Assembly: GCA_034667465.1 (NCBI GenBank)
Contig: JAXDJV010000013.1
Coordinates: forward strand, 188,303-252,302
Origin: Acidobacteriota bacterium
GTDB taxonomy: Bacteria > Acidobacteriota > Thermoanaerobaculia > Gp7-AA8
Length of the DNA: 64,000 nucleotides
Direction of reading: 5' to 3'
Shown: one piece after another, positions 40,256 through 59,946 of the stretch
Layout: each line of letters opens with the position of its first letter
Numbering within the stretch: the stretch's first letter is position 1
Position numbers and translations under genes: made by a program
Notes under the pieces: model-generated
Seen by the model: only the letters and a program-made list of their open reading frames with translations
The model's database searches: none
Told to the model about the DNA's origin: nothing

Positions 40256-40259
<4 letters not shown>
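39006..40259 (-). CDS. Sensor histidine kinase (NtrY/NtrB-like partner of the sigma54 regulator)
   Basis: GTG start overlapping the regulator stop (GTGA) with a GGGGGAG Shine-Dalgarno. Two N-terminal TM helices. H-box 'MSHEVNNSVGAV'. HATPase 'DSGSGI...GRGLGL'. Confidence 0.8.
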
Positions 40260-41632
<1,373 letters not shown>

Positions 41633-41636
41633 AAAA

Positions 41637-41730
41637 TCAGTGCAGAGTGCTGAGTGCTGAGTGCTGAGTCGAAAAGCCTTCGTGCCGGCCGGTTTGACTC
41701 AGCACTCTGCACTCAGCACTCAGCACTTTC
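41637..41730. repeat. REP-like palindromic element, copy C
   Basis: agtgcagagtgctgagtgctgagtgctgagtcg ... gactcagcactctgcactcagcactcagcact, between the FtsX permease stop and the regulator start. Confidence 0.7.
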
Positions 41731-42925
41731 ATTCGTACCTGAGCGCCTCCGCCGGTTCCACCACCGACGCCAGCCAACTCGGATATGCGGCGCAAAGTAG
41801 CGTGATCGCGTAGATCAGAACAAGCGATGCGATCAGTCCGAACGTGAACGTGGCCGGCGAGACGAGCGCGAAGACGCCGAGGATCGGGAGCTGGAGCACG
41901 ATCACGACACCGATCGATACGGCCAGCGTCGACAACAACGCCACCTCGGCCAACACCTGGTGGCGCACGTCCGCGCCGCTCGCGCCTAGCGCGCGACGCA
42001 GGCCGAGCTCGCGCGTCCGCCGCGTGACGTTCTGCCACAACACGCCGGTCAGTCCGAGCGCGACCATCGAGATCAGGAAGAGCGCGACGATGCCGAGGAT
42101 GATGATCGGCGACACGCGCGACTGCAGCATCATCGTGCGCATCGAATCCATTCGGCGGATGCGAAACGACGCGCTCGGCTCCACGGCGTGCAGCCGCTTC
42201 GTCATCTCCTCTTCGATCTGCGCCGGAGTGCCGGGCTGCATCCGCACGAGGATGTTGCGCGGCACGCGCCCCTTGCTCGCGAATGACACGCGCGCGAACG
42301 CCATGTTCACGCCTGCGGTCGAGATCTCGCCGTTCTTGCGATACGGCGGCACGACGCCGACCACGCGCCAGACGACGTCGCCGTCGCTGTCGAACTTCTG
42401 TCCGATCGGGTCGCGATCGCCGTACATCGCCTTCGCCAGATCGGCGTCGATGACCATCGGCTTGAACGTCGCCGCATCATCATCAGGACGGAACCAGCGC
42501 CCGCGCACGACTTTCATTCTCATCGTGTTCGCGTAGGAGTCGGTGACTTCGTCGCGCGTCAGATCGATTTTCTTTCCGTCGATCTTCCAGCTGCCGGACG
42601 ACGTCGAGTTGCCGTACGGCGGCGTCATGCCTGCGGCCGCATCGACGACCTGCGGGAAGCTCTTCACTTCGTTCAACAGCTTCTGCATCGTGAAACGGAA
42701 CTCGCCGTCGTCTTCATTCGGATCGGGATCGTGTCCGTTCGTGTCGAAGCGGATGACCCAGACGTTCTGCCACTCGAACCCGAGTGGATCATTCCAGCGC
42801 GAAACAACGGTTGCGCCGGCAGTCAGCACGGTGAAGAGGACGAGGAAGGAGAAGAAGATCTCGGCCATCACGAGCGAGTTCGCACGCTTGCGATGCCAGA
42901 CCAGTTTCAGCAGATGAAGCGTCAT
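41729..42925 (-). CDS. ABC transporter permease (FtsX/MacB-like)
   Basis: ATG overlaps the upstream permease stop (ATGA) with a GGAGG Shine-Dalgarno. N-terminal TM, large periplasmic domain, C-terminal FtsX 4-TM bundle. Confidence 0.8.
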   Translation of the reverse strand: MTLHLLKLVWHRKRANSLVMAEIFFSFLVLFTVLTAGATVVSRWNDPLGFEWQNVWVIRFDTNGHDPDPNEDDGEFRFTMQKLLNEVKSFPQVVDAAAGMTPPYGNSTSSGSWKIDGKKIDLTRDEVTDSYANTMRMKVVRGRWFRPDDDAATFKPMVIDADLAKAMYGDRDPIGQKFDSDGDVVWRVVGVVPPYRKNGEISTAGVNMAFARVSFASKGRVPRNILVRMQPGTPAQIEEEMTKRLHAVEPSASFRIRRMDSMRTMMLQSRVSPIIILGIVALFLISMVALGLTGVLWQNVTRRTRELGLRRALGASGADVRHQVLAEVALLSTLAVSIGVVIVLQLPILGVFALVSPATFTFGLIASLVLIYAITLLCAAYPSWLASVVEPAEALRYE

Positions 42926-44163
42926 TGCACACCTCCGCGAAGAGCGTTGACGGGATTGAGGCGCGCCATGCGCCACGCGGGATAGACGCCGGAGAAGATG
43001 CCGAAGAAGACGGCGATGAGCATGCCGTAGCCGAAGATGCGCGGGTTGAGATCGAAGCGCATGTCGGGAAGCAGATCGGCCGCGTTCAGCACCTGAATGG
43101 CGATCGCGGCGAGCACGAAGCCGATCAGACCGCCGACGACGGTGATGACGATGTTCTCGAAGACGAACTGCGACATGAGCGCGCGGCGCGGCGCGCCGAA
43201 CGCTTTGCGCACGCCGATCTCCGACGCCCGCTCGAGTGTGCGGCTGAGGTTCAGCGTGATGAGGTTCAGCGCCGGCAGCGTCATGAACAGAATGCCGGCG
43301 AGCACGAGGATGAGCGCGAGAAAGAACGGCGCGCGATCGCGAAAGCGCGTACCGGCGAACATGCCGCGCGCCGACGCTTCGAACGTCGTGTCAAGTCCTG
43401 CCTGCACCTGCGTGAACGTTTTCGGATCGGGAGACTGCACTCGCTGCATCACCGCCGCGAAGTCACGTTTGACGCGAGGCAGATCGCCGCGGCTCTTCGC
43501 CATGACGATGGCGTTGAAGTCGCCGGTGAACTCGTCGCGATACGTCGACGAGCGCATCGTGCCGATCGGCGCCCAGATCTCCGCGTATGCGGCGATGCGC
43601 GTCAGCGCGACCGACGGCACGACGCCGATGATGCGGAAGCGATCGCCTTCGACCTCGATCGTTTTGCCGACCGCGAGCGCCTTGCCGAACAGCTTCTCGC
43701 GCAGCTTGTCGCTGATGACGGCGACGTGCGCGCCGGCGTCGTCTTCCTGCTGCGTGTACGGTCGTCCTTCGAGAAAGGTGAAGTCGCAGATGCGCCAGAA
43801 GCTGCCGTCGGTGCGTTTGAAGAACGTGTCGATGCGTCCGTCGCCCAGGTAGAGACGCGTCTGCCGCGCTTCGCTGTAGATCGAGGACGCTTCGATGCCG
43901 GGCAGCGGACGGACGTAGCGGTTGAGAAAACCGTAGCCGGGATTCGTCGTCATCGTGGCGGTCGGTCCGATCTGCGCCATCGAGAGAATGCAGAGCACGC
44001 GGTCGAACCGTCCCTCCGGCGTGCGCGGCGAGTAGACGTTGTCGAGCACCGCCGTCGCCACCATCAGCACGAGCAGCGTGACGCTGATGCCGAAGAGCGA
44101 GATGAAGGTGAAGAACTTGCGCCGCGCAAGAACCTTCAGTGCGAGTTTGAGTTGAGTTTTCAC
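42922..44163 (-). CDS. ABC transporter permease (FtsX/MacB-like), paralog
   Basis: 'MKTQLKLALKVLARRKFFTFISLFGISVTLLVL' FtsX topology. Confidence 0.8.
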   Translation of the reverse strand: MKTQLKLALKVLARRKFFTFISLFGISVTLLVLMVATAVLDNVYSPRTPEGRFDRVLCILSMAQIGPTATMTTNPGYGFLNRYVRPLPGIEASSIYSEARQTRLYLGDGRIDTFFKRTDGSFWRICDFTFLEGRPYTQQEDDAGAHVAVISDKLREKLFGKALAVGKTIEVEGDRFRIIGVVPSVALTRIAAYAEIWAPIGTMRSSTYRDEFTGDFNAIVMAKSRGDLPRVKRDFAAVMQRVQSPDPKTFTQVQAGLDTTFEASARGMFAGTRFRDRAPFFLALILVLAGILFMTLPALNLITLNLSRTLERASEIGVRKAFGAPRRALMSQFVFENIVITVVGGLIGFVLAAIAIQVLNAADLLPDMRFDLNPRIFGYGMLIAVFFGIFSGVYPAWRMARLNPVNALRGGVQ

Positions 44164-44829
44164 CTAAGCCACCTGCCGCCCGTCGAACAGACGCACGATC
44201 CGGTTCGTCTGCTTCGCGAAGCGGTCGTCGTGCGTGACCATCACGATCGTCGTCTTGTCGTCGCGGTTGAGCGCGTGGAGGATCTCCATGATCTCGTCGC
44301 CCATCTGCGAATCGAGGTTGCCGGTCGGCTCATCGGCGAGCAGCACGCGCGGACGTCCGACGATCGCGCGAGCGATGGCGACGCGCTGCTGCTGACCGCC
44401 GGAGAGTTGCGTCGGAAAGTGATGCACGCGCGACGCGAGTCCGACGCGATCGAGTGCCGCAAGCGCCAGCCGCCGGCGCTCCGCCGATCCCATCTTTCGA
44501 TACAGCAGCGGGATCTCGACGTTGTCGACGACCGTCAGATCGGGCACGAGGTGGAAGCTCTGAAAGACGAATCCGAGCTTCTCGTTGCGCACCTTCGAGA
44601 GTTTTTTGTCACCCGATTTTCCGAGCGCTTCACCGTCGAGCGCCAGCGTGCCGGAGCTCGGCGCGTCGAGCAGTCCGATCAGATTGAGCAGCGTGCTTTT
44701 GCCGCAGCCCGACGGCCCCATGATCGAGATGAACTCGCCCTGCGTGACGTCGAGATTGATGTTCTGCAGCGCCAGCGTTTCGACGCGTTCGGTCCGGTAC
44801 ACCTTGTCTACGTTTTCCAGTCTGATCAT
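44164..44829 (-). CDS. ABC transporter ATP-binding protein (MacB/LolD-type)
   Basis: Walker A 'GPSGCGKST'. Signature 'LSGGQQQRVAIARA'. Walker B 'LLADEPTGNLD'. H-loop. Confidence 0.9.
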   Translation of the reverse strand: MIRLENVDKVYRTERVETLALQNINLDVTQGEFISIMGPSGCGKSTLLNLIGLLDAPSSGTLALDGEALGKSGDKKLSKVRNEKLGFVFQSFHLVPDLTVVDNVEIPLLYRKMGSAERRRLALAALDRVGLASRVHHFPTQLSGGQQQRVAIARAIVGRPRVLLADEPTGNLDSQMGDEIMEILHALNRDDKTTIVMVTHDDRFAKQTNRIVRLFDGRQVA

Positions 44830-44836
44830 GCTTTCC

Positions 44837-46081
44837 TCACTCGAGCCGGAGCTTCTTCACTCCGGCGTAATCGTTCATGTTCGAGATGACGACCTCGTCG
44901 CCTTCGCGGAGGCCGCCCGTTACTTCAATCGTTTCTTCACCCGCCAGTCCCCACTGCGCCGGGACGCGAACGAGCTCGTCGCCGCGGACGACAAAGACCT
45001 CTTCGCGCTCGCCCTGTCCGAGCGCGCCGCGGCGAACGCGAAGCGCGCCGTTGCGGCGGCCGGTGACGACGAAGACGTCGACGCGCAGGTTGTTGCGCAG
45101 CTTCGCGTGCGACGGTTGCGCGAGATCGACGTAAAACCGCGCCGTCCCGTTCTCGATGCGCGGATCGATGCCGGCGATGGTGCCGTCGACGAGCGTCGAG
45201 TCGTCGAGACGAACGCGCGCCGGCATCCCGGCGGAGAGCTTCGCGACGTGCACGTCGGAGATCGTCGCCACCACCCGAAACGACGAGAGGTCGGCAATGC
45301 GCGCCACCACATCTCCGCGGCGGATCGTGGCGCCGGCGTCCTGCACCGCCCACGTCACGACGCCATCGCGATCGGCGCGCATCATCGCGAGCCCAACCTG
45401 GCGGTTGGACTCGGCCATCTCTTTGCGCAGCGTCCGCAGTTCCATCGCCGAGCCGGCGAGCTGCGCTTCGGCATTGCGTTGCGCACGCGTCAGCGCGTCA
45501 TGAAGCTGCGTCAGCTCGATGTCGGTCTTCTTCACCGCGGTCGCGGCGGCGAGATTTTCCTGCGTGGTGATCAGCCCTTCGCGGCTGAGCTTCGCGTTCT
45601 GTTCCGCTTTGAAAGCGACGATCTCGCGGTCGAGTTTCTTCTGTTCGATCTGCGCGCGCAGCGTCGCGATCGTCTCTTCGACGCGCAGCCGCAGCTGTGC
45701 TTCTTCGCTTTCTTTCTGCGCGACGCGATCGGCGAGCCGCTCGGCATCGAGTCGCGTCGCCGATGTGTCGAGCGCGATCACTTCATCACCGGCGCGAACG
45801 CGATCGCCGGCGCGGCGGACGATGCGCAATACTCGCGCTTCGACCGGACTCGAGACGACCTGCTCGGTCGCTGGCACGACGGTGCCGCTCGCCTGCAGCG
45901 ACGCGTCAACCGCGCCACGCTCGACGCGCGCCGTCTGAATGTTGCGGCGCTTCACCGACGGACGCAGCCACTGCACTGTCGCCGCGAATGAAAACGCGAT
46001 TGCCGCAATTGCGACGATCACCGTCGCCACGCGCCGGATGAGGCGCCGGCGCCGAATGTCTGCTGTGATTTCCCGATCCAT
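44837..46081 (-). CDS. HlyD/MacA-family periplasmic adaptor (efflux membrane fusion protein)
   Basis: N-terminal TM, long coiled-coil, C-terminal beta-barrel/MP domains ('RVRLDDSTLVDGTI'). Confidence 0.8.
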   Translation of the reverse strand: MDREITADIRRRRLIRRVATVIVAIAAIAFSFAATVQWLRPSVKRRNIQTARVERGAVDASLQASGTVVPATEQVVSSPVEARVLRIVRRAGDRVRAGDEVIALDTSATRLDAERLADRVAQKESEEAQLRLRVEETIATLRAQIEQKKLDREIVAFKAEQNAKLSREGLITTQENLAAATAVKKTDIELTQLHDALTRAQRNAEAQLAGSAMELRTLRKEMAESNRQVGLAMMRADRDGVVTWAVQDAGATIRRGDVVARIADLSSFRVVATISDVHVAKLSAGMPARVRLDDSTLVDGTIAGIDPRIENGTARFYVDLAQPSHAKLRNNLRVDVFVVTGRRNGALRVRRGALGQGEREEVFVVRGDELVRVPAQWGLAGEETIEVTGGLREGDEVVISNMNDYAGVKKLRLE

Positions 46082-47703: not shown

Positions 47704-50700
47704 CTACAAGCCGCGCTCCATCACGATTTCTTTCGAACTGCCGCCGTCGACCTGACGGAATCCCGCCTGGCGATAGAGCTGCGTCAGATTGTTGATCTCC
47801 TTCCGCCGTGACGGCAGATCGTCGATCTTCACGCGCGCCGGTCCGGTGAGCAGTTCGAGAATGTTGTTGCCGATGCGTGCGCCCCAGAAGCTCGGCGGCA
47901 CGAAGAGGTCACCATCTTTCCACTCCAGCACCGTCCCGTTTTTCTGCGCGAACAGTAGACCGACGCTGACGGTTCGATTCTCCACGGTGATCTCGTAGCT
48001 GCGGATGTCCGCGGCCGAATCGAGTGCGGCCGCCTTGCCGGGATACATCGCCTTCCATAGTTCGAACGCAACTCCCGCGCGGGTCGTGAGGGGGACGAGT
48101 TGCGCGCCGAGACGTTTCTTGTTTCGCGTCGACGACAGATCGAAGCGCTGTTCGATGAAGCGCACCATCTGCGGGTTGTACATCGGCGCAAAGAAGGGCC
48201 AGAGCTCGCGGAAAGCCTGCGTCGTCGTCCAGCGACCAAACTCGTTGAGCCAGCCGAGGTTCAGCGGATGCGTCGAGTAGCGTTCCATCTGACAGCCGAT
48301 GTAGACGTCTTCCATCAGCTGGATGACCTGCGTGAAGAGCGGAACGACATGCGCGAATTTTTCCGGCGTCAGTTTGTGTGTCAGCGGCGGCGTGTCCGCA
48401 TCCCACTTCAACTCCGGGAAGAGGTCGCGAACGAGTGACTCATCGGCATCGATGAGCTGCCGCTGCAATTGCTCGAGCTGGTTCGTGCGTCCGAGGAGTT
48501 GCGCTTCGAGATCGGCGGGAACCGGGAGCCACTTCCAGCGGGCATCGCCGAAAAGCTCGCTCGTGTCAGTCTCGGCGGCGCCGGCATCAGCGACGAATTC
48601 GAATGCGGCGCGTGCCGCATGCAGGCCGAGGCGACGATATGACTCCCACTGCTTCTCGTCGTAAAACTGATCGCCCGTCGATTCGTGCGGGAACTGCTCG
48701 TTGCGCGCTCGGTACTGCAGGATGTCGCCCGGCTCGTCGCCGACGAGCGTTGGCTTGAATAGCAGCAGAATGCCGCGATCGCCGTCCGGGTATTGGATGT
48801 CGCCGACCGCGAGGTGCTGCCGCGAGTAGCGTTTATCGTCCGGCTTGAGTACGCCGAGATCCATCTCGATCTCGACGCCGAAGTCCTCGCGTGCGCGGCG
48901 CAGCGCGTTGCCGACGTCGTCGAATGCGACGTCGGGATCGGCGCCGCAATCAGAGACGATGATGTACTTGCAGCGACGGCGCAGCAGTTCGTAGAGACCG
49001 AGGTTTTCGAAGTGGCCGCCGTCAGACAGATGCACCGACTGCGATTCGGGACCGGAGTAGGTGCGACTGAACATTTCCGCGAGGAGATCGGTGCCGGGCA
49101 GGCTCCACGCTTTCGTAAAGCGGTACCAGTAGCCGAGACGGAGATTCAGCGATGCCATCAGGAACGTCGCCGAGGGACCGATGTCCATTGAAACGGAACC
49201 CATGTTCGAGTTGAACGCTGCCGCCGATGCGGTCATCGCCGAAGCTAGCGAGACCTGAGTCGTCGCGTCTTTCCATTGCTGAAAGCGGTTCGCCAGCGTG
49301 ATTCCGAACGGCGACAACGTTGCGCTGCGGCCACCGCGGCTGAGGTTCGCGAGGTGATTGCCGGAGAGGTCGTTCGCCGTGCAGCAGACAAGATGAATCG
49401 GCGCCGAGGTCCTGAGATCCTGCATCAGGATGTCGTCGCCTGGCCGTTGTGTTGACTGCCGATTTTCGGTGGCGCAGCTCGCCTTTGTATTCGATGCGCC
49501 GAGGTAGGAACGCGCCAGCCGCGAGCGATAGAGCGCGTGCATCCCGATCTCGTTCGGGTTGTACAGCAGCAGCGCCATGACGACGATCGCGGCCGCGATC
49601 ATGGCTGAGATGAATGACCGGTAGCTGAGATCCGTGAATACCAGGAATGCCGCGGCGAGCGCGAATGCGATGAGCGCCGCGATCGCGAGCAACGGCTGCG
49701 CATACCGCTGCAGCACCTTGCCGACGAATCCTGTTTTCGCGCGGTTCGGCTGACGCGACAGAAACTTCTGGAGAACCGCGTAGAGCGCCGTCGCGACGCC
49801 ACCTGCGCCGGCGGTCACGAACTCCCGCTTCGTGTAACCGAACAGCATGAACGCGACGATCAGAAACGCGATCATGCCCATCCAGAACACGGAGAGACCG
49901 AGCAGCCTTGCGATGACACGATCGAACGCCGCGCGATAGGAACCGATCGTCGGATCGGAGATGAAAACTGAAGACCACGTCCGGACAAAGATGAGGGCGA
50001 CCATCGCGGCCAGCCAGCCAATCGCGGGCGCGAGAAAAGTCGGCCACCTCATCTCGGGACCTGGAAACTCTCCGAAATCCGCCACCCCATGCTTTCCGGC
50101 GACGTATCCGGTGACGCTGAGCGCCACGGCGATCGCGATCGCGCCGGCAGTCGCATACAGCCAGAGGTAATAAGGCTCGCCGCCATGGCGTTCCACGGCC
50201 GCCGTCTTCAACTCGTACGCCGTCAATACAAAGATCGTCGAGATCGCCATGATTGCGAGCATGGCCTGCACGTGAAGCGCCGCCCCCACGGAAATGATTG
50301 CGGGAAGCGGCAGCGCGGAGTTGAAGCCGAGGCTCGCGCCACTCACCACGACGGCGAACCAAACTACGAGCGTGAGCACCGAGAGGCCGACGATGATCGT
50401 CGGGAGGATCGCGGAGATGGCGCCGCCGAAAAACTGCCACGTTTCGAGCTCGAAGAGTCCCCACCGCGGCGCGAGAAATCGACTGAACTCTCGAAGGTGA
50501 CGAATCGCTTCGTGTTCGGATCGCGCCGCTTCCGCGTCGGCCGCGGTCGGGAAGGGCACCGGTCCGGGGCGGCCTTCCGACGTCGTCGCAGGTTCCGGGT
50601 GACGCGCGCGCCACGCACTCCAGAAGCCGCCAACATAGCCGCCGCCTGACACGGTGCTGACGTAATGAAAATGCCGAAGCACGTCGCGATCAGCGAGTCC

Positions 50701-50928
50701 CTGCAGCAGACCGAGGTTGAACGTCGCACTGCGGATCCCGCCGCCGGAGAGCGCGAGGCCTGCGAGATCGGCCGGCACTCCAACCGCAAACGGCTCGGCG
50801 CCGGGATCCAGCGGCGGTCGCTCCGTCGCATCCCCATCAGCGAGCGAGCCGCTGAAAGCAACCTTCGGCTCGCCCGCGACCTTGAGACTCTCCAACTCCC
50901 TCCGGAACGCCGCCTTGAATGTCGTCAT
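47704..50928 (-). CDS. Large (1074 aa) membrane-embedded patatin-like phospholipase family protein with a long C-terminal domain of unknown function
   Basis: N-lobe 'LSGGGIRSA' (GGGxR oxyanion hole) and 'STVSGGG' nucleophile-elbow-like motif. About 10-12 TM helices. C-lobe 'HLSDGGHFENLG' (catalytic Asp, DGG). Then about 400 aa with no recognised motif. Confidence 0.65.
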   Translation of the reverse strand: MTTFKAAFRRELESLKVAGEPKVAFSGSLADGDATERPPLDPGAEPFAVGVPADLAGLALSGGGIRSATFNLGLLQGLADRDVLRHFHYVSTVSGGGYVGGFWSAWRARHPEPATTSEGRPGPVPFPTAADAEAARSEHEAIRHLREFSRFLAPRWGLFELETWQFFGGAISAILPTIIVGLSVLTLVVWFAVVVSGASLGFNSALPLPAIISVGAALHVQAMLAIMAISTIFVLTAYELKTAAVERHGGEPYYLWLYATAGAIAIAVALSVTGYVAGKHGVADFGEFPGPEMRWPTFLAPAIGWLAAMVALIFVRTWSSVFISDPTIGSYRAAFDRVIARLLGLSVFWMGMIAFLIVAFMLFGYTKREFVTAGAGGVATALYAVLQKFLSRQPNRAKTGFVGKVLQRYAQPLLAIAALIAFALAAAFLVFTDLSYRSFISAMIAAAIVVMALLLYNPNEIGMHALYRSRLARSYLGASNTKASCATENRQSTQRPGDDILMQDLRTSAPIHLVCCTANDLSGNHLANLSRGGRSATLSPFGITLANRFQQWKDATTQVSLASAMTASAAAFNSNMGSVSMDIGPSATFLMASLNLRLGYWYRFTKAWSLPGTDLLAEMFSRTYSGPESQSVHLSDGGHFENLGLYELLRRRCKYIIVSDCGADPDVAFDDVGNALRRAREDFGVEIEMDLGVLKPDDKRYSRQHLAVGDIQYPDGDRGILLLFKPTLVGDEPGDILQYRARNEQFPHESTGDQFYDEKQWESYRRLGLHAARAAFEFVADAGAAETDTSELFGDARWKWLPVPADLEAQLLGRTNQLEQLQRQLIDADESLVRDLFPELKWDADTPPLTHKLTPEKFAHVVPLFTQVIQLMEDVYIGCQMERYSTHPLNLGWLNEFGRWTTTQAFRELWPFFAPMYNPQMVRFIEQRFDLSSTRNKKRLGAQLVPLTTRAGVAFELWKAMYPGKAAALDSAADIRSYEITVENRTVSVGLLFAQKNGTVLEWKDGDLFVPPSFWGARIGNNILELLTGPARVKIDDLPSRRKEINNLTQLYRQAGFRQVDGGSSKEIVMERGL

Positions 50929-50971: not shown

Positions 50972-53900
50972 CTACCGCGAGTTCGTTGCGGCGACTTTGT
51001 TCGGGAACGCGGGCCGCTTCATCGGCGTCGCCGGCGTCGCGGGCAACTTCTTCATGACCTCCGCGATCGCGCGATCGAGCTGCGGGTCGCGGCCGGCGAT
51101 GACATCGGCCGGCGTTTGCTCCACTTCAATATCGGGCGCGACGCCTTCGTTCTCGACCTTCCATCCCTCCTCGGTCCAGAAGCCGAAGTTCGGGGCGGTG
51201 ATGTTGCCGCCGTCCATCAGATCGGGGAAGCCGAGGATGCCGACGAGACCGCCCCATGTGCGGCGGCCGATGAGCGGGCCGAGATTGAGCTTGCGGAACA
51301 TCCACGGCAGCAGATCGCCGCCGGAGCCGGCGTTCTCGTCGATCAGCATCACCTTCGGACCCTGAATCGATGCGAGCGGCGTCTTCATGTCGGCGCCGTA
51401 GCGCGTCGCCCAGTTGGCGATGAACGGACGATTGAGAATGTCGATGTAGTAATCGGGGAACGAGCCGCCGCCGTTGTAGCGCTCATCGAGAATGGCCGCT
51501 TCGCGATTCGCCTGCGGGAAGAAGTAGCGGCGGAACGACTCGTATCCGGCCGTGCTCGTGTTCGGCAGATAGACGTACGCGACGCGGCCGTTCGTCTTCT
51601 CGGTCACGTAGCGGATGTTGTTCTCGATCCACGCGCGGTTGCGGAGATTCGCTTCGTTCTCGATCGGCACGACCTTCACGACGCGCGAGCCGCTGCCGTC
51701 GGCATTCGGTCCGACCGTGATCTCGACGATGCGGCCGGCGGTGCGCTCGAAACGCGCGTAGAGATTGTCCGGATAGCGGAGATCCTTGCCGTCGACGGCG
51801 AGCAGATACTCACCTTCGCGGACGTCGACACCGGGTTCGGTCAGCGGCGCGCGCAGTTCCGGATTCCAGTTCAGGCCGCCGTAAACCTTCGCGAAGCGAT
51901 AGCGGTTGTTGTCGATCTTGTAGTCGGCGCCGAGGAGACCGCCCGGGATCGTGTCGACATTCGCGAGCGACTCGCCGCCGGTCAGATACGAATGGCCGAC
52001 CGAAAGCTCGCTGGCCATCGCGCGCATCAGACGATTCAGATCCTGGCGAACGGAGACGTCGCCGAGCATCGCCGCGTACTTGTCGTGCATCGCCTTCCAG
52101 TCGACGCCGTGCATGGCCGGGTCGTAGAAGTAATCGCGATTGATGCGCCACGCTTCGTCGAAGATCTGTTTCCATTCGACGGTCGGCTCGATCTTCACCG
52201 CGATCTGATCGACCGGCAGCGGACGCTTCGAGATATCAACCTTGTCGCCCATGTCGGCGATCGACCAGCGCATGCCGGCTTTGACGAGGATTCGTTTGCC
52301 GTCGCGCGAGACTTCGAAGCTGTCGCACTTCTCGAGCAGCGTGTCTTCCTTGCGCTTCGTCAGATCGAAACGCATCAGGCTCGTGTCGAACTTGTCGTCG
52401 TGAATTTCCGGGCTGGTCGCTTTCAGATAGAGCAGCTGTCCGGTTTTCGCGATGGCGAGATCGGAGTAGATCGCCTCCGGCACCGGCAGCGCCTGAATGC
52501 GCTGCGAGAGGCGCTCGAAGTCGATGACGACTTTCACGTCCTTCGACTCTTCCTTCTTTTCGTCGGCTTTCTTTTTGTCGTCCGATTTATCGGCGGCTTC
52601 GTCGGCTTTCTTCGCCGCTTCCTCGTCGCTCTCTTTTGCCAGCGGCGAGACGACGCCCTTCGGCAGGACGACCATGTAGATCGCGCTCGTGGCGCGGAGA
52701 TCGGTGTTCGAGAGCGCGAACCAGTCTTCGACCGGACCGGCGTTTGTCGACGCGAGGAAGTAGAGGTATTTGCCGTTCGGATCGAAGACCGGCGACATGG
52801 CGTCGCTGTAGCCGTCCGTCACCGGCGATGACGTCTTCGTGGCCACCGACCAGACGTGGACGGTGTGGAAGAAGTTCTGCGAGTTCGTCGTGTAGGCGAG
52901 CCACTTCGAATCGGGCGACCAGTTGTGATCGAGGTCGCGGAACGGACCGTACATCGTGTTCTGCGAGATCTTCGTCGACGTTCCCGACGCGACGTCGAGC
53001 ACGTAGACCGAGCGGGAGTTGTCGAGATAGCTGATCAGCTTTCCGTCAGGCGACCACTTCGGATTCTCGTAAAAGCCGGCGCCGTTCAGTTTGATCTTTC
53101 GAACGTCGCCGCGGCCGTCCTGCGGCGCGATGCGCAGCTCGTACTCGCCGGTTTCATCGGTGAACCAGGCGATCGATTTGCCGTCCGGCGACCAGGCCGG
53201 CGAGCGGTCGTTTGCGCCGGGCGACTGCGTCAGATTGCGGTCGTCGCCTTTCTCGGCCGGCAGCGTGATGATCTCGCCGCGATACTCGAGGACGGCGCGC
53301 TGTCCGGCCGGCGAGAGCGATGCGTTGCGGATGTACTTCGCCCCCTTCACGAAACGCGGGCGCGTTTCGACGAGGTCGGCGGCGACGCCGATCTTCAGGC
53401 GCGTGTCGCGCGCGGCGGACGGTTCATACAGATGAAGGTAACCGGCCTGTTCGAAGATCAGCTTTCCGGCGCCGCCGTTCACCGCCGTCACCGGGAAGTC
53501 GGAGTACTTCGTCAACTGCTTTACTTCTTTCGTGCCGCGGTCGAACGAGTAGAGGTTGAACTCGCCGTTGCGATCGGAGCGGAAGTAGAGCGTGTCGCCG
53601 ATGAAGATCGGATCGGTGTCGTTGCTGCGCGCGGCCGGCTGCGGCACCTGTTCGACGGCGTTCGTGGCGACGTCGAAGAGGAAGATGCGCGCGGTGGCGC
53701 CGCCGCGGTAACGCTTCCACTGCGCGAACGCTTCGCGCAGCGGGACGAACGCGATCGTCTTTCCGTCCGGCGAGTACGCGGCCGTCGACGCATTCGGAAT
53801 CGGCAGCTTCGTGACGGCGCCGCCGCCGACCGGCACGGTGAAGAGCTGCTGGTAGCGGCGCGTGTAAACCTCGCGCGGCGACGTGAAGAGAATCGACTTG

Positions 53901-54259
53901 CCGTCCGGTGTGAAACCGAGCACGGCGTCGGCGTCGGGATGCCACGTCAGACGCTTCGGCACGCCGCCGGCGGCCGGCATCACGTAGACATCGACGTTCC
54001 CTTCATACGAACCGCTGAACGCGAGCAGCGATCCGTCGGGCGAATAGCGCGGCAGCGTTTCGACGCCGGGATGCGACGTCAATCGCCGCACGCCCGAGCC
54101 GTCGAGGTTCGCGGTCCAGATATCGTTCGCATATCCGAACGCGATGCCGTTCGCGCCGACCGTCGGCGTCGTGAGCAGCCGCGTGTCGGTGGTGTTGACG
54201 GCGAGAAGCGGAAGTGCGGCGGCGAGCAGGAAGAGCAGGCAAAGGCGTGCCGATTTCAT
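50972..54259 (-). CDS. Tricorn protease homolog (S41 family): two beta-propellers, PDZ and C-terminal peptidase domain
   Basis: Internal start 'MKSARLCLLFLLAAALPLLA' (signal peptide). TolB/WD40-like repeats ('YSPDGSLLAF', 'WSPDGK...'). C-terminal S41 region 'GGSFPDYYIDILNRPFIANWATRYG...MLIDENAGSGGD'. Confidence 0.8.
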   Translation of the reverse strand: MKSARLCLLFLLAAALPLLAVNTTDTRLLTTPTVGANGIAFGYANDIWTANLDGSGVRRLTSHPGVETLPRYSPDGSLLAFSGSYEGNVDVYVMPAAGGVPKRLTWHPDADAVLGFTPDGKSILFTSPREVYTRRYQQLFTVPVGGGAVTKLPIPNASTAAYSPDGKTIAFVPLREAFAQWKRYRGGATARIFLFDVATNAVEQVPQPAARSNDTDPIFIGDTLYFRSDRNGEFNLYSFDRGTKEVKQLTKYSDFPVTAVNGGAGKLIFEQAGYLHLYEPSAARDTRLKIGVAADLVETRPRFVKGAKYIRNASLSPAGQRAVLEYRGEIITLPAEKGDDRNLTQSPGANDRSPAWSPDGKSIAWFTDETGEYELRIAPQDGRGDVRKIKLNGAGFYENPKWSPDGKLISYLDNSRSVYVLDVASGTSTKISQNTMYGPFRDLDHNWSPDSKWLAYTTNSQNFFHTVHVWSVATKTSSPVTDGYSDAMSPVFDPNGKYLYFLASTNAGPVEDWFALSNTDLRATSAIYMVVLPKGVVSPLAKESDEEAAKKADEAADKSDDKKKADEKKEESKDVKVVIDFERLSQRIQALPVPEAIYSDLAIAKTGQLLYLKATSPEIHDDKFDTSLMRFDLTKRKEDTLLEKCDSFEVSRDGKRILVKAGMRWSIADMGDKVDISKRPLPVDQIAVKIEPTVEWKQIFDEAWRINRDYFYDPAMHGVDWKAMHDKYAAMLGDVSVRQDLNRLMRAMASELSVGHSYLTGGESLANVDTIPGGLLGADYKIDNNRYRFAKVYGGLNWNPELRAPLTEPGVDVREGEYLLAVDGKDLRYPDNLYARFERTAGRIVEITVGPNADGSGSRVVKVVPIENEANLRNRAWIENNIRYVTEKTNGRVAYVYLPNTSTAGYESFRRYFFPQANREAAILDERYNGGGSFPDYYIDILNRPFIANWATRYGADMKTPLASIQGPKVMLIDENAGSGGDLLPWMFRKLNLGPLIGRRTWGGLVGILGFPDLMDGGNITAPNFGFWTEEGWKVENEGVAPDIEVEQTPADVIAGRDPQLDRAIAEVMKKLPATPATPMKRPAFPNKVAATNSR

Positions 54260-54552
54260 GCGCGGGAGTGTAACTCCGGCATCGTGATGCGTTAGCGTTT
54301 GGTCATCAATGCGACACAGGATTGTCATCGCGGTCGCTGTCGTGCGCGCCGCCGAGCGCGCACGCCGCGCCGGTGATTCTGATGGTACGCGGCAGCGGGG
54401 AGCGCGGCGACAAAGCGATCGCGCGTATGTACGAGAGCAAGGTCACTCGCGCTCGCACAACGCGTGCGCGGCGATCCAAAAACGGAGTCACGTCCGATGC
54501 CTCTGTACGGCCACACCTTCGGCAACGCGCCGAATGCGCGCCGCGTCGCCGC

Positions 54553-55231
54553 TCATCGCAGAGGAGGCAGAGCCTCCAGCCTCTTTAACCATCCGTCGAA
54601 GTGCAGGCACTCCGCACGAATGCGGTCTACGCCGATGCATTTCGCAACGCCACTCCCGTGCAGCACCTTGTCGTACGAGGGCTGCAACTTCTTCAGTCGC
54701 GCGGAAGGGTGCGTGTCTGGCCCGTCGTTAATGTGTTCAGGCGAATCTGCCGCGTCGCGCACGCGCTGCAGTTCATCGACAAAAACGAGACCAATCCGAC
54801 CGCACAGTCGCGAAGCAAGCCACATCCGAGAAAAGCAGTGCCTCGAACTCGTAGGGCTGGACATGCGCGATGAAGCGGTCCGCGCGTCGATCGCTCACTT
54901 TCGCCACGGCTGCGCCAAAAACAGCTTCGATCACACGGCACCGGCTAATCGCATCGTTCTCTAGACGGCCTTCAGCGATGCCCGGGAAGTCGGCTTGCAA
55001 ACCATACAGATCGAACAGTGTCGTCACGTATGTGTCTGCGCGTTCGCGCAATGTGTTCCGAAGATGGCGCAGCACGCGCTCAGGCGTCAAAGCGCCGCCG
55101 ACCGCTCCTTGCGACGTGGCGATCAAGCGCGGCTGTAAACTGATATCGCGGTCCGCCAGCCTGGGCGCGAGCACGTCTCGAATGAACGTCTCTTCGGTCT
55201 GGCCTTCGCCGACGACCATGACCTCAATCAC
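54553..55231 (-). pseudogene. DUF4276-family protein gene, frameshifted
   Basis: Frame A (55231..54773) gives 'MIEVMVVGEGQTEETF...YEFEALLFSD', the DUF4276 N-terminal region. The C-terminal consensus 'PEHINDGPDTHPSARLKKLQPSYDKVLHGSGVAKCIGVDRIRAECLHFDGWLKRLEAL' continues in another frame (ORF 54553..54864). The shift lies between about 54795 and 54845. Confidence 0.6.
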
Positions 55232-56313
55232 CTCGTCGGTCTCCCACCGACGACGTTCATCTTCCAGAGTTCACCGAGCGCGTAGTCTTCCAACCATTCC
55301 TTCAGGTGCTCGGCGTCGAGTCGCCGGAAGACAGATGCGCCCTCGTGTCGCTCGGCGATGATCACATCTTCGGGCGCCAACTGATTAACCAGTTCGACCG
55401 ACTGCGTGGAGACGACGATCTGCTTTCGTTCCGACGCCTGTCGAAGCAATCCTCCGAGAACCGCCAGCGCGTACGGGTGCAAACCAAGCTCCGGCTCATC
55501 GACGATGATCGTGTCGGGCTGCAGGTTCGTCGGCTGCAGCAACAATGTCGCCAGACAGATGAACCGCAACGTACCGTCAGACAACTGCAGTGGTCCACGT
55601 GGCGTATCCCGGTCATCGACTTCCAGCCATTCCAACTCGATCTTTTCGCCGGGATCACTGCGCTCGACGAAGTCACCGAAGAACGGTGCAACCATCCGCA
55701 CGGTTTCGATGATCGAGCTATAGCTGCTCTTGTGCTTCTCCCGAAGCATCCGGAGAAACGGCGCCAGATTCGACGCATCCGGCTTCAATCGAAGATTGTC
55801 GCGCACCGCTTGCGCCAAACGAACGGGCGCGCTGGCGCTCGTATCGTGGAAATGGAAGACGCGCCAGCTGCGAACTGCCGGCAACACGTAGCTCGCGATC
55901 ATGTCGCCTTCAACTGTCGGCAACCTCGCCTCGGTGTGTCCGCTGCCGAGCGATCGATTCGAGTTCCCGTAGTTCCCCGCGAAATAGGTTTCCTCGCGCG
56001 AGAACGCGAGGTGGTTGGCGGCCGGGATCAGGCTGAAGTGATAGCCATTCTTCGCGAAGTACAGCTCAATGTCGATCTCGCGTGTTCGCTTTCGTCCCCC
56101 GAACAGGAGCGCGTCCGGTCCATATTCGCTCTTCACGTAGAGCTGCAGCCGGCCGTCCATCATCTCGGCCAGCATGCGAAAGAGGCTGATGAAGTTCGTT
56201 TTTCCGGCGCCGTTGGCCCCGATCAGGACGTTTAATTGCGACGCAAGCTGGAAGTTATCCAGCTCCCGGATCGACTTGAACCCTCGCACGCTCAGGCGCG
56301 CCAAACGTGTCAC
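55228..56313 (-). CDS. AAA family ATPase (AAA_15/AAA_21, OLD/SMC-like ABC ATPase), partner of DUF4276
   Basis: 'LNVLIGANGAGKTNFISLFRML' Walker A. Q-loop. 'TIIVDEPELGLHP' Walker B/D-loop. Stop overlaps the DUF4276 start (ATGA). Confidence 0.8.
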   Translation of the reverse strand: MTRLARLSVRGFKSIRELDNFQLASQLNVLIGANGAGKTNFISLFRMLAEMMDGRLQLYVKSEYGPDALLFGGRKRTREIDIELYFAKNGYHFSLIPAANHLAFSREETYFAGNYGNSNRSLGSGHTEARLPTVEGDMIASYVLPAVRSWRVFHFHDTSASAPVRLAQAVRDNLRLKPDASNLAPFLRMLREKHKSSYSSIIETVRMVAPFFGDFVERSDPGEKIELEWLEVDDRDTPRGPLQLSDGTLRFICLATLLLQPTNLQPDTIIVDEPELGLHPYALAVLGGLLRQASERKQIVVSTQSVELVNQLAPEDVIIAERHEGASVFRRLDAEHLKEWLEDYALGELWKMNVVGGRPTR

Positions 56314-56712: not shown

Positions 56713-58209
56713 CTACGCCGTCGCCTCTGCCGCCACCGGCTTCGCGATCTTCATCAGCGCGTAATAGACGACGAGCGCCACGCCGAAGCCGACGAACCAC
56801 GCGTAGTCGTACAACGTCTTCATCGACGGCACGAATCTCCCGATCCACGCGAAGAAACAGGCGATCACCGTCGCGACGACCGCGCGCCAGTTCCATCCCT
56901 TCGCGTACCGATACTCGCCGGTTTCGCGATAGAGATCGGGCAGCACGAGGTTCTTGTCGCGGATCAGCCAGTAATCGGCGATGAGCACGCCGGCGATCGA
57001 GCCGAGACCTCCGGAGTAAGCGACCAGCCAGTCGAAGATGTAGCCGGAAGGATCGGCGATCAGGCGCCAGGGCTGCATGATGATGCCGAGGATGCCGGTG
57101 ATCAGACCGCCGGTCCGGAATGAGATCCATTTCGGGAACGCGTTCGCGAAATCGTTCGCGGGCGAGACCACATTCGCGGCGATGTTCACCGACAGTGTCG
57201 CGACCACGATCGTGAACATCGAGATTGCGATCACCCACACCTGCGTGAAGTGGCCGACGAGCACGATCGGATCCCACAGCTCGCTCATCTTTGACTGCGG
57301 ATAGATGACGACGGCGGCGGAGGTGATGATCACTCCCATCGCGGCGAAGAGCGTCATCGTCGACGGCAGCGCGACCGACTGTCCGATGACCTGCTCGCGC
57401 TGGCTCCGCCCGAAGCGGGTGAAGTCAGGCATGTTCAGCGACAGCGTCGCCCAGAAACCGATCATGCCGGTCAGTGACGGAATGAAGACCGGCCTGAACT
57501 CCGCCCACGTCCGAAGTTTGCCGGGATGATCGATGAGATATCCGAGTCCGCCGGCGCGCCAGACCGCCCACGCGAGGAGCAGCGCCGTCATGACGAGCAC
57601 GAATGGCGCGGCCCAGTTCTCGACGCGGCGCAGCAGATCCATGCCGCGATAGATGATGTAGATGTTCATCCCCCAGAAGAGCATGAATGAGAGCCATTGC
57701 GTCGTGGGGTGACCGCCGAATGAACCGAGGAGGTTCGTCCAGCCGGGGATGATCGCGCCGAAAAATGTTTGCAGCGCCTGGCCGCCGATCCACGCCTGAA
57801 TGCCGAACCAGCCGCAGGCGACGATCGCCCGCATCAGCGCCGGCAGATTCGAGCCGTACGTGCCGTAGGCGGCGCGCGCGAAGACGGGAAACGGGATGCC
57901 GTACTTCGTGCCGGGATGCGAGTTGAGGAGGATCGGGATGAGCACGATCACGTTGCCGAGGAGGATGGTGAGGAGCGCCTGCCACCAGTTCATGCCTGAG
58001 CTGATGAGAGCCGACGACATCATGTACGTCGGGATGCAGTGCGCCATCGAGATCCAGAGCGCGGCGTAGTTGTACGTAGTCCAGTCGCGTTTCGCGACCG
58101 GCACCGGCGCGAGGTCTTCGCTGTAGAGCGGACTCGATTCGATCGAGGAGCGGTCGCGCAATTCGACGCGGCCATCGTCGTGCTGGATCACTTCGGCTGT
58201 GTTCGGCAT
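56713..58209 (-). CDS. NCS1 family nucleobase:cation symporter (cytosine/purine/uracil/thiamine/allantoin permease family)
   Basis: Internal ATG 'MPNTAEVIQHDDGRVELRDRSSIESSPLYSEDLAPVPVAKRDWTTYNYAALWISMAH' is the characteristic NCS1 N-terminus. 12 TM helices. The upstream part of the listed ORF is Arg-rich artefact. Confidence 0.8.
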   Translation of the reverse strand: MPNTAEVIQHDDGRVELRDRSSIESSPLYSEDLAPVPVAKRDWTTYNYAALWISMAHCIPTYMMSSALISSGMNWWQALLTILLGNVIVLIPILLNSHPGTKYGIPFPVFARAAYGTYGSNLPALMRAIVACGWFGIQAWIGGQALQTFFGAIIPGWTNLLGSFGGHPTTQWLSFMLFWGMNIYIIYRGMDLLRRVENWAAPFVLVMTALLLAWAVWRAGGLGYLIDHPGKLRTWAEFRPVFIPSLTGMIGFWATLSLNMPDFTRFGRSQREQVIGQSVALPSTMTLFAAMGVIITSAAVVIYPQSKMSELWDPIVLVGHFTQVWVIAISMFTIVVATLSVNIAANVVSPANDFANAFPKWISFRTGGLITGILGIIMQPWRLIADPSGYIFDWLVAYSGGLGSIAGVLIADYWLIRDKNLVLPDLYRETGEYRYAKGWNWRAVVATVIACFFAWIGRFVPSMKTLYDYAWFVGFGVALVVYYALMKIAKPVAAEATA

Positions 58210-58251
58210 GGCGGCGATTGTAGCGCGGCGCTGAACGTACAATCGCCGTTC

Positions 58252-59946
58252 ATGAAACGACTGCTGCTCGCCGCTCTGATCACCCTCGCCGCCTCGCTTC
58301 CCGCATTCGCCGCGTCGAAAAAAACGCCGGCGAAACCGTTCTCCGTCGTCGAAGCTTCGATCTCCGACATGCAGGCGGCGCTGCGCGAAGGCCGCGTCAC
58401 ATCGCGCGAGCTCGTGCAGCAATACCTCACGCGCATCGCGACGTATGACGCGAAGCTGCACGCGGTCATCACCGTCAATCCTCGCGCGCTCGAAGAGGCT
58501 GACGAACGCGATCGCGAGCGCGCCTCCGGGCAGATTCGCGGTCCGCTGCACGGCATTCCGGTCGCGCTGAAAGACAACATTCATACGACAGACATGCCGA
58601 CCACCGGCGGCGCGCTGGCGTTCGCCGAGCTCGTGCCGCCGTATGAAGCGACGATCACGAAGAACCTCCGCGACGCCGGCGCAATCATCATCGCCAAGAC
58701 GCAGATGACCGAGCTCGCGAACTGGGTGGCCGGCAATCCGTCGATGCCGAACAACTACAACTCGCTGAACGGCTATGGATTCAATCCGTACGATCCGCGC
58801 CGCGATCCGCGCGAGGCGACGAACGACGGACGTCCCGTGCTCAACACCGGCGGCTCGAGCTCCGGCGCCGGAACCGCGGCGAGTTTCTGGGCGGCGAACG
58901 TCGGGACGGAAACGTCGGGCTCGATTCTCAGTCCGTCGAATCAGAACATGCTCGCCGCGGTGAAGCCGACCGTCGGCCGCATCTCGCGCTACGGCGTCAT
59001 TCCGATCACCGCCGATCAGGACACGCCCGGCCCGATGGCGAAGTTCGTCACCGACGCCGCGATCATGCTCGGCGCACTTGAAAGCGCATCGCCCGATCCG
59101 AACGATCCGGCGACGAAGAACTGCACGCCGGTGCGCGACTACACGCAGTTCCTGAAGAAGGACGGACTGAAAGGCGCGCGCATCGGCATTCCGCGCGCCG
59201 GCTACTACGACAAGATCACGCTGCCAGGCACCGAGAAGCCGCGCGGCGGTCTGAATCCCGACCAGACGAAAGCGATCAACGAGGCGATCGAAGTGCTGAA
59301 GCAGCAGGGCGCGGTGATCGTCGACCCGGCTGACATTCCGTCGGTCGTCGACAAGGATCCGAAGAACAACTTCTGGCTCTGGGGCGTCTGCGGCGACATG
59401 GACGACGTCAAAGAGAAGAAGTGCTCCGTCGATCTCGCGTACGGAATGGAGCGCGATTTCAACGCGTGGCTGAAATCACTCGGCGAGAAAGCGCCGGTGA
59501 AGTCGCTGACCGATCTGCGCGAATGGAACACGAATCATTCGAAGAGCGGCGCGATCAAGTACGGGCAGTCACTGCTCGACATCTCCGACGCGATGGATCA
59601 GGAGCTGTTCCGCGCGCGCTACGAATCGGATCGCGCGAACGATCTTCGTCTCTCCGCGACGCATGGAATCGATGAGGTGATGAAGGCGCAGAAGCTCGAT
59701 GCGCTGCTGTTTCCCGGACCGGGCGGTGCGTCGATCGCAGCACGTCCCGGCTATCCAACTGTCATCGTACCGTTCGCAACGATTCCGAATGCGCCGACGC
59801 CGGCGTTCCCCGATTCGTTCAAAGCGAAACCGCAGCCGTACGGCGTCAGCTTCACCGGAATGGCCTGCAGCGAGCCGACGCTGCTGCGGCTCGCGTACGC
59901 GTTCGAACAGGCGACGAAGCGCCGCGTCGCGCCGCAGCTACCGTAA
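58252..59946 (+). CDS. Secreted amidase (amidase signature family)
   Basis: Signal peptide 'MKRLLLAALITLAASLPAFAA'. 'GGSSSGAGTAAS' AS-family Ser-cisSer-Lys core. 'GIPVALKDNIHT'. Confidence 0.85.
   Translation: MKRLLLAALITLAASLPAFAASKKTPAKPFSVVEASISDMQAALREGRVTSRELVQQYLTRIATYDAKLHAVITVNPRALEEADERDRERASGQIRGPLHGIPVALKDNIHTTDMPTTGGALAFAELVPPYEATITKNLRDAGAIIIAKTQMTELANWVAGNPSMPNNYNSLNGYGFNPYDPRRDPREATNDGRPVLNTGGSSSGAGTAASFWAANVGTETSGSILSPSNQNMLAAVKPTVGRISRYGVIPITADQDTPGPMAKFVTDAAIMLGALESASPDPNDPATKNCTPVRDYTQFLKKDGLKGARIGIPRAGYYDKITLPGTEKPRGGLNPDQTKAINEAIEVLKQQGAVIVDPADIPSVVDKDPKNNFWLWGVCGDMDDVKEKKCSVDLAYGMERDFNAWLKSLGEKAPVKSLTDLREWNTNHSKSGAIKYGQSLLDISDAMDQELFRARYESDRANDLRLSATHGIDEVMKAQKLDALLFPGPGGASIAARPGYPTVIVPFATIPNAPTPAFPDSFKAKPQPYGVSFTGMACSEPTLLRLAYAFEQATKRRVAPQLP

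Follow-up and report, generated by a model that had tools for sequence, protein, structure and literature searches.

Reading Frame and Domain Layout

The DNA analysed, referred to below as the window, is a 64,000-nucleotide stretch of an Acidobacteriota genome (contig JAXDJV010000013.1, positions 188,303 to 252,302 of the forward strand). It carries a minus-strand gene for a 1074-residue protein, here called the query, in which the two lobes of a patatin-type catalytic domain are separated by a membrane domain. The original prediction, made from the letters alone, had placed this gene at 47704-50928 with a length of 1074 aa, and both values agreed with the open reading frame (ORF) listing. The ORF begins with ATG, ends in a stop codon and contains no internal stops and no frameshift. 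The start codon is supported by the conservation of the N-terminus (F4 and E11) in homologs. The GC content of the gene (~0.62) was the same as that of the flanking DNA, and a 100%-identical protein (P0001) was present on a 363-kb contig of an Acidobacteriota metagenome-assembled genome (MAG). The features of the gene were as follows:

47704-50928, minus strand: complete ORF, ATG start, 1074 aa and stop codon (ORF listing)
50449-50928, minus strand: N-lobe of the catalytic domain, residues 1-160 (Pfam Patatin match, strands and helices of the AlphaFold2 (AF2) model, conservation)
50731-50748, minus strand: SGGGIR oxyanion-hole and phosphate-binding motif, residues 61-66 (translation check)
50641-50655, minus strand: nucleophile elbow TVSGG, residues 92-96, with the Ser94 codon at 50647-50649
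49549-50448, minus strand: membrane insert, residues 161-460, about eight transmembrane helices
48601-49548, minus strand: C-lobe of the catalytic domain, residues 461-776
49003-49026, minus strand: catalytic Asp motif SDGGHFEN, residues 635-642, with Asp636 (translation check, homolog alignment)
48139-48564, minus strand: family-specific all-helical subdomain, residues 789-930 (AF2 helices, conservation)
47707-48108, minus strand: divergent GNAT-fold domain, residues 941-1074, with the motif-A-like WGARIG and the motif-B LYRQAGF

Two sets of relatives were used. Of 8,000 candidates scored in a word-indexed homolog search, 5,713 proteins reached E ≤ 1e-3, and the conservation counts given below refer to an alignment of the top 120 (35-67% identity, 1043-1598 aa), most of which were collinear with the query over 90-100% of its length, with approximately one-fifth covering less. 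In a motif-seeded scan in which each species was represented by one genome, at least 593 relatives were confirmed, from which 80 loci were fetched. As these loci had been retrieved with the same motif patterns, motif conservation within them is not independent, and the 120 word-indexed homologs were used instead.

The Catalytic Domain

The motif positions given by the original prediction were correct on translation: SGGGIR at 61-66, STVSGGG at 91-97 (Ser94) and HLSDGGHFENLG at 633-644 (Asp636). S61 was present in 120/120 homologs, as were G62-G64 and R66, which make up the GGGxR/K signature of the patatin superfamily. The same was true of T92, V93, S94, G95, G96 and G97 of the nucleophile elbow, where an invariant Thr stands in place of the initial Gly of the canonical GxSxG (T-V-S-G-G). 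Structural superposition of the model suggests that this elbow may be equivalent to that of the patatins and of cytosolic phospholipase A2 (cPLA2). D636, G637, H639 and F640 were likewise found in 120/120 homologs and position 638 was G or A in 119 of them, matching the DG[A/G] form of the superfamily's catalytic Asp motif. The Ser94/Asp636 dyad, whose conservation had been left to be checked, is therefore invariant throughout the alignment. Judged by alignment, the motif matches are not chance occurrences, as they are invariant in all 120 homologs down to ~35% identity.

Outside the motifs, H144, R146 and L152 of the N-lobe were invariant, and the lobe ends in a conserved connector, RHLREFSxFLxPRxGxFE, directly before the first membrane helix. 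The C-lobe contains the connector HxxYRxRLxRxYLG and a near-invariant block at residues 746-768 (FPHExTGDQFYDExQWESYRRLG); 175 of its soluble residues lie between the membrane insert and the catalytic Asp. In the AF2 model the catalytic domain begins ~45 residues from the N-terminus, and the two lobes are packed into one domain with high confidence. The modelled domain has the three-layer alpha/beta/alpha patatin fold and the extended cPLA2-type catalytic fold, and the fold search returned the cPLA2 family as the closest structural relatives.

Profile and sequence searches detected little of this relationship. Positions 1-50 of the 191-position Pfam Patatin profile (PF01734) matched residues 58-109 with 26.8 bits, below the gathering threshold of 27.7 bits; Pfam sees only these first 50 positions because the domain is split. 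PLA2_B (PF01735) was not reported at E ≤ 1 in an hmmscan of the protein, and the single-sequence PDB search gave no cPLA2 at E ≤ 1 and nothing beyond an insignificant match to the N-terminus of VipD. A scan of the protein against NCBIfam found no matching model.

The Membrane Insert

The insert between the lobes is predicted to form about eight integral helices (161-198, 209-246, 255-279, 300-322, 330-365, 369-392, 401-435 and 440-455), with both lobes on the cytoplasmic side. E239, R316, D336 and R341 are its invariant interfacial residues.

The central claim of the original prediction, that the catalytic lobes are split by a polytopic membrane domain, was thus upheld, and its overall interpretation stands in part. 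The 10-12 hydrophobic helices that it had counted come down to approximately eight in residues 161-460, seven strongly hydrophobic and one weakly so (369-392). Asp636, which it had put about 600 aa downstream, lies 542 residues past Ser94 and 574 past the GGGxR motif. What it had described as an uncharacterised C-terminal domain of about 400 aa is in fact ~140 residues of catalytic domain (to ~776), followed by a ~290-residue module that combines a helical subdomain with a GNAT fold.

The C-Terminal Module

The helical subdomain has the invariant residues W800, E839, R899, W900, W910 and P911 and the motif HPLNLGWxNxFxRW. It gave no match in Pfam, in PDB sequences or in the fold search. In a library of 1.84 billion proteins, the C-terminal module was seen only at the C-terminus of the membrane-inserted patatin family.

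The domain that follows has the topology of the GNAT fold in the model. Its motif-A-like WGARIG occupies residues 1015-1020 and its motif B, LYRQAGF, residues 1051-1057. Tyr1052 was invariant, and W1015, G1020 and F1057 were at least 90% conserved, in ~100 homologs. At motif A the query reads W-G-A-R-I-G and the family consensus W-G-A-G-I-G, so that the canonical Q/R (Q/R-x-x-G-x-G/A) is absent; the query segment aligns to W-N-M-G-I-G of the aminoglycoside acetyltransferase AAC(6') 6bff. One homolog (P0050) did match the Pfam GNAT profile, with an E-value of 2.7e-11. Among 33 divergent tails of other family members, two reached Pfam GNAT, and an hhalign comparison of the tail profile with the query module gave an E-value of 5.9e-5 and a probability of 65% over 149 columns that include both motifs.

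Stand-alone copies of the module were also sought, and most of the matches were collinear metagenomic fragments. A 309-aa protein (P0129) on a 3485-bp contig of Joint Genome Institute (JGI) sample 3300056388 comprises the C-terminal module only, with 28% identity to residues 796-1074, and its gene overlaps, tail to tail and by 23 nt, an oppositely oriented gene for a conventional GNAT. It could be a stand-alone module, but its start lies 115 nt from the contig end.

Distribution and Modular Variants

The relatives, at least 593 at one genome per species, were spread over Gemmatimonadota, Verrucomicrobiota, Planctomycetota, Myxococcota, Nitrospirota, Acidobacteriota, Methylomirabilota, Desulfobacterota and Pseudomonadota. 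Cultured carriers include Luteimonas marina, Luteimonas sp. R10 (complete genome) and Geomonas. A search of phages for relatives gave no matches. One full-length homolog (L067, DATMNZ010000161.1) was assigned to a 'Candidatus Saccharimonadales' MAG, which is unexpected for a reduced-genome lineage of the candidate phyla radiation and may be a binning error.

The 80 loci differed mainly beyond the catalytic core. In 25 of them the protein was a core-only form of ~800-990 aa, with similarity stopping near query residue 776; 43 had the helical subdomain and mostly also a divergent tail of 120-200 aa; and in the other 12 the likeness to the query ran into the GNAT domain (residue 982 or beyond). 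At the other end, 54 of 189 homologs longer than 1000 aa and containing SGGG[IV]R had an additional 200-280-aa extension ahead of the N-lobe, which is absent from the query. This extension had no Pfam match and contained further hydrophobic helices in the six that were read; its carriers include P0029, P0033, P0034, P0043, P0045 and P0049.

Core-type copies are also carried by rhizobial plasmids and chromids of cultured Sinorhizobium and Phyllobacterium, where they are annotated simply as 'patatin-like phospholipase family protein' or 'hypothetical'. The Phyllobacterium protein WP_262263666.1 (839 aa) has seven hydrophobic segments between GGGIR and DGG, and WQO97375.1 (884 aa), encoded on S. 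meliloti pSymA, has several such segments between TVSGG at 86 and DGGH at 687.

The Haem/GMC Subfamily

At five of the 80 loci, in different phyla, the patatin gene adjoins a same-strand gene for a ~800-900-aa protein with two CxxCH haem motifs (L018, L037, L049, L053 and L068). A GMC flavin oxidoreductase (flavin adenine dinucleotide, FAD) lies alongside in four of the five; the contig of L068 ends too early to show one. The haem protein gave weak Cytochrom_C and RoxA-like matches and no significant Pfam family, and its identity was 51-61% among four of the five loci and 29-32% in the fifth. At the Gemmataceae locus the gene directly upstream of the patatin homolog (L018:4829-5830, plus strand), beside the haem and GMC genes, codes for a class-3 lipase (Lipase_3, E 4e-30).

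On plasmid pOM4 of Mesorhizobium onobrychidis (NZ_CP062230.1, L082:1-6723), a GMC oxidoreductase is fused N-terminally to a split, membrane-inserted patatin. The product, WP_258124319.1 (1562 aa), has GGGVR at 775, helices at 867-1145 and DGGH at 1385, is annotated simply as 'GMC oxidoreductase', and is preceded directly upstream by a haem-protein gene. The gene fusion and the neighbourhoods tie the membrane-inserted patatin family to redox and lipid metabolism. The 51-61% identity of the haem protein across phyla suggests that the haem/GMC/patatin unit is a horizontally mobile lipid-oxidation module, and within this subfamily the membrane bundle may move material across the membrane. The haem and GMC partners were absent from the 64-kb window.

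Gene Neighbourhood

The genes surrounding the query gene in the window were as follows:

50972-54328, minus strand: tricorn-type protease, 1118 aa (PD40 repeats, Tricorn_C1, PDZ_Tricorn, Peptidase_S41)
54773-55231, minus strand: DUF4276 protein, 152 aa (PADLOC HEC-01B, E 1e-40)
55228-56313, minus strand: AAA_21 ATPase, 361 aa (PADLOC HEC-01A, E 1e-138)
44837-46081, minus strand: HlyD-family adaptor of a MacB-type operon
44164-44829, minus strand: ABC ATPase of the MacB-type operon
42922-44163 and 41729-42976, minus strand: two MacB_PCD/FtsX permeases of the MacB-type operon
40256-41632: sigma-54 response regulator

The tricorn-type protease gene ends 43 nt upstream of the patatin gene on the same strand, and the two may be co-transcribed; this arrangement is not kept in relatives. 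On its other side, the patatin gene converges on an aldehyde dehydrogenase gene. All-against-all ORF clustering of the 80 loci showed no neighbour family conserved beyond within-taxon synteny, and three close relatives (53-63% identity) were flanked by unrelated metabolic genes. The lack of conserved neighbours in both sets suggests that the gene works alone. Near several homologs there were histidine kinases and short-chain dehydrogenases, which were rejected as chance co-occurrences of very abundant families.

The AAA_21 and DUF4276 genes overlap and match the PADLOC candidate defence system HEC-01, located ~3.8 kb upstream with the tricorn-type protease gene in between. A cytosine/purine permease (Transp_cyt_pur) is encoded at 56713-58584 (minus strand) of the window, and another directly upstream of the 53%-identical homolog P0005 (L085:1691-3196), which may be residual subfamily synteny. 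The MacB-type genes form an efflux operon at 41729-46081 (minus strand).

Proposed Function and Alternatives

The protein is most likely a patatin/cPLA2-type phospholipase that reshapes the cell's own membrane lipids. In the specific form that we favour, with a confidence somewhat above even, it would be a Ser/Asp acyl hydrolase or transacylase integral to the inner membrane, with a probably acyl-coenzyme A (acyl-CoA)-dependent GNAT in cis, making it a self-contained enzyme of lipid remodelling or turnover. Residues 1-160 and 461-776 would fold together as one cPLA2-like catalytic domain on the cytoplasmic face, where the inserted eight-helix bundle would anchor the active site at the cytoplasmic leaflet of the bilayer and may feed Ser94/Asp636 laterally with glycerophospholipids or lysolipids of the cell itself. 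The phosphate would be bound, and the oxyanion hole formed, by R66 and the GGG loop. The C-terminal module would act as a second, probably acyl-CoA-dependent, transferase that uses the product or a co-substrate of the first reaction; it might N-acylate a lipid or lysolipid that bears an amine, or carry out a re-acylation step in remodelling.

This proposal draws on computational evidence, namely the intact ORF, the invariant catalytic residues, the folds, the topology, the phyletic spread and the modular association with lipid and redox enzymes. The substrates, the GNAT activity and the physiological role are what we infer, partly by analogy with cPLA2 and PNPLA enzymes, for which lysophospholipase, transacylase and N-acyltransferase activities are documented (PMC7603386).

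Several observations weigh against the favoured proposal. The eighth helix of the insert (369-392) is weakly hydrophobic. The GNAT similarity of the query was insignificant by sequence, both against Pfam (Acetyltransf_7, E 0.21, 12.5 bits compared with a cutoff of 27) and in the PDB profile match (E 0.043); together with a motif A that has no usual Q/R, this weak signal means that the GNAT domain could be regulatory or inactive. The C-terminal module is missing from 25 of the 80 loci and is therefore not essential to the core function. Furthermore, the haem partners have lipoprotein signals, and one GMC protein has a signal resembling that for twin-arginine translocation (Tat), although the fused GMC has none, which is awkward for an exclusively cytoplasmic chemistry.

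Taken jointly with the other family members, the query might tentatively be read as the first example of a large and so far unrecognised class, that of bacterial cPLA2-like enzymes integral to the membrane, with a conduit bundle and interchangeable accessory enzymes, a broader proposal to which we give distinctly less credence. The eight-helix bundle, a fold not yet seen in solved structures, would then be a lipid conduit that extracts phospholipid from the bilayer, possibly from the outer leaflet, and presents it to the cytoplasmic Ser/Asp site. The product would be processed by the accessory enzymes, GNAT here and the fused or adjacent GMC and periplasmic dihaem protein elsewhere, and the class would define new pathways of lipid remodelling or oxidised-lipid repair. 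Such a class could be the prokaryotic root of the cPLA2 fold.

Four other explanations were weighed. An assembly or annotation artefact, in which mis-assembly or read-through would have joined a membrane protein to two fragments of patatin, has nothing in its favour except the unusual layout, and we regard it as refuted for practical purposes. The ORF is free of stops and frameshifts, the same collinear architecture was found in 120/120 top homologs and all 80 fetched loci from many phyla, complete Luteimonas genomes and plasmids or chromids of Sinorhizobium and Phyllobacterium carry it, and AF2 packs the two lobes into one high-confidence domain. It is improbable that the enzyme is a plain membrane-anchored (lyso)phospholipase for turnover, similar to NTE/PNPLA6, which is anchored in the endoplasmic reticulum, with a degenerate GNAT-like module serving in regulation or oligomerisation. 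The weak GNAT signal of the query (E 0.21), the two of 33 divergent tails reaching Pfam GNAT, and the many members without the module would be consistent with this, but the invariance of Tyr1052 and the at least 90% conservation of W1015, G1020 and F1057 at the motif A and B positions argue for retained ligand binding or catalysis.

Equally doubtful is a lipid N-acyltransferase or transacylase in which the acyl chain on Ser94, instead of leaving as fatty acid, would be passed to an acceptor, an amine or a hydroxyl, bound by the C-terminal module. The GNAT fold would then be a scaffold for binding acceptor or CoA, and an N-acyl lipid or aminolipid would be made, much as cPLA2-epsilon makes N-acyl-phosphatidylethanolamine (NAPE) and PNPLA1 acylceramide. 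The cPLA2 family, the nearest structural relatives, has among its members both a CoA-independent transacylase (gamma) and an N-acyltransferase (epsilon). The protein carries in cis a GNAT fold whose Tyr is invariant, and the confinement of the module to the membrane-inserted patatin family suggests co-evolution with the lipase. However, the case is inferential, the core-only members (25/80) function without the module, and neither the window nor the 80 loci showed a gene of an aminolipid or NAPE pathway close by. Rated marginally lower still is a stand-alone conflict, defence or suicide effector, a membrane-embedded phospholipase, latent until triggered by phage or stress, sensed through the variable C- or N-terminal modules, that would degrade the cell's own membrane like CapV/CapE in cyclic-oligonucleotide-based anti-phage signalling systems (CBASS). 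The HEC-01 pair might have spoken for such a role, but the tricorn-type protease gene stands between it and the patatin gene, and the neighbourhoods of the three close relatives have no such pair. A PADLOC scan of the protein returned no families at E ≤ 1, the phage search had no matches, and neither a CD-NTase nor any other conserved partner was present in the 80 loci or the three close relatives. The neighbours are ordinary metabolic genes, the GC content resembles that of the surroundings, and the recurring partners are solely redox and lipid enzymes.

Comparison with Known Systems

The superfamily and both soluble folds are already known, and annotation pipelines label some members 'patatin-like'. 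The literature searches found no description of the split patatin/membrane-bundle/GNAT architecture, and the lipocone paper mentions patatin just as an operon neighbour of other families. The bundle-in-catalytic-domain architecture, the bacterial cPLA2-like character and the helical-plus-GNAT module thus appear to be undescribed in Pfam, NCBIfam, PADLOC and the literature searched. This is a large, uncharacterised and testable enzyme class, and not a paradigm-breaking one. Members abound in groups of soil and sediment bacteria with poorly known lipid metabolism (Acidobacteriota, Gemmatimonadota, Verrucomicrobiota, Planctomycetota, Nitrospirota, Myxococcota, Lysobacteraceae and rhizobia), and the cultured carriers of the family (Luteimonas, Geomonas, Sinorhizobium meliloti pSymA and Mesorhizobium) make the hypothesis directly testable.

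The patatins of PF01734 (patatin, PlpD, CapV/CapE, ExoU, VipD and RssA) are soluble, secreted or beta-barrel-tethered. Their catalytic Ser and Asp are 100-200 residues apart, compared with 542 in the query, including the eight transmembrane helices, and the query is without their cyclic-nucleotide, ubiquitin or Rab5 activation context. Pfam and the fold search showed none of the POTRA, beta-barrel or host-factor-binding domains of ExoU, VipD and PlpD, and the predicted eight integral helices with cytoplasmic lobes are incompatible with secretion. The query domain differs from the GNATs AAC(6'), RimI and PanZ in that it follows a conserved helical subdomain of 140 residues, itself without known relatives, and forms part of a membrane lipase.

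Like NTE/PNPLA6-7, the query would hold a patatin-type domain permanently at the cytoplasmic face of the membrane, with the cell's own phospholipids as substrate (PMC7603386). Among the systems compared, NTE/PNPLA6-7 is the closest functional analogy. NTE itself has an N-terminal helix anchor, cyclic-nucleotide-binding-like domains and an uninterrupted catalytic domain, and is not known to carry a GNAT.

The eukaryotic group IV enzymes (cPLA2-alpha 1CJY and cPLA2-delta 5IXC) share 15-16% sequence identity with the query, in which PLA2_B was undetected at E ≤ 1. The N-terminal C2 domain of group IV PLA2 mediates Ca2+-dependent membrane binding, and cPLA2-gamma does without it. The query likewise has no C2 domain (no Pfam match), is bacterial, and has a GNAT module fused at its C-terminus. 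A 2020 review described the cPLA2 family as found only in vertebrates (PMC7603386). If active as proposed, the query would challenge the view of the cPLA2-type catalytic fold as a vertebrate innovation, would add a new class of lipid-remodelling enzymes to bacteria, and would offer structural biologists a cPLA2-like enzyme locked in a membrane-engaged state. Phospholipases of the patatin/cPLA2 superfamily are known as soluble or peripherally bound proteins that need recruitment to membranes. The binding of cPLA2 is peripheral and Ca2+-dependent, whereas the query is predicted to associate with the membrane through eight integral helices inside its catalytic domain, and having the membrane domain within the catalytic domain itself would solve the problem of interfacial catalysis in a different way.

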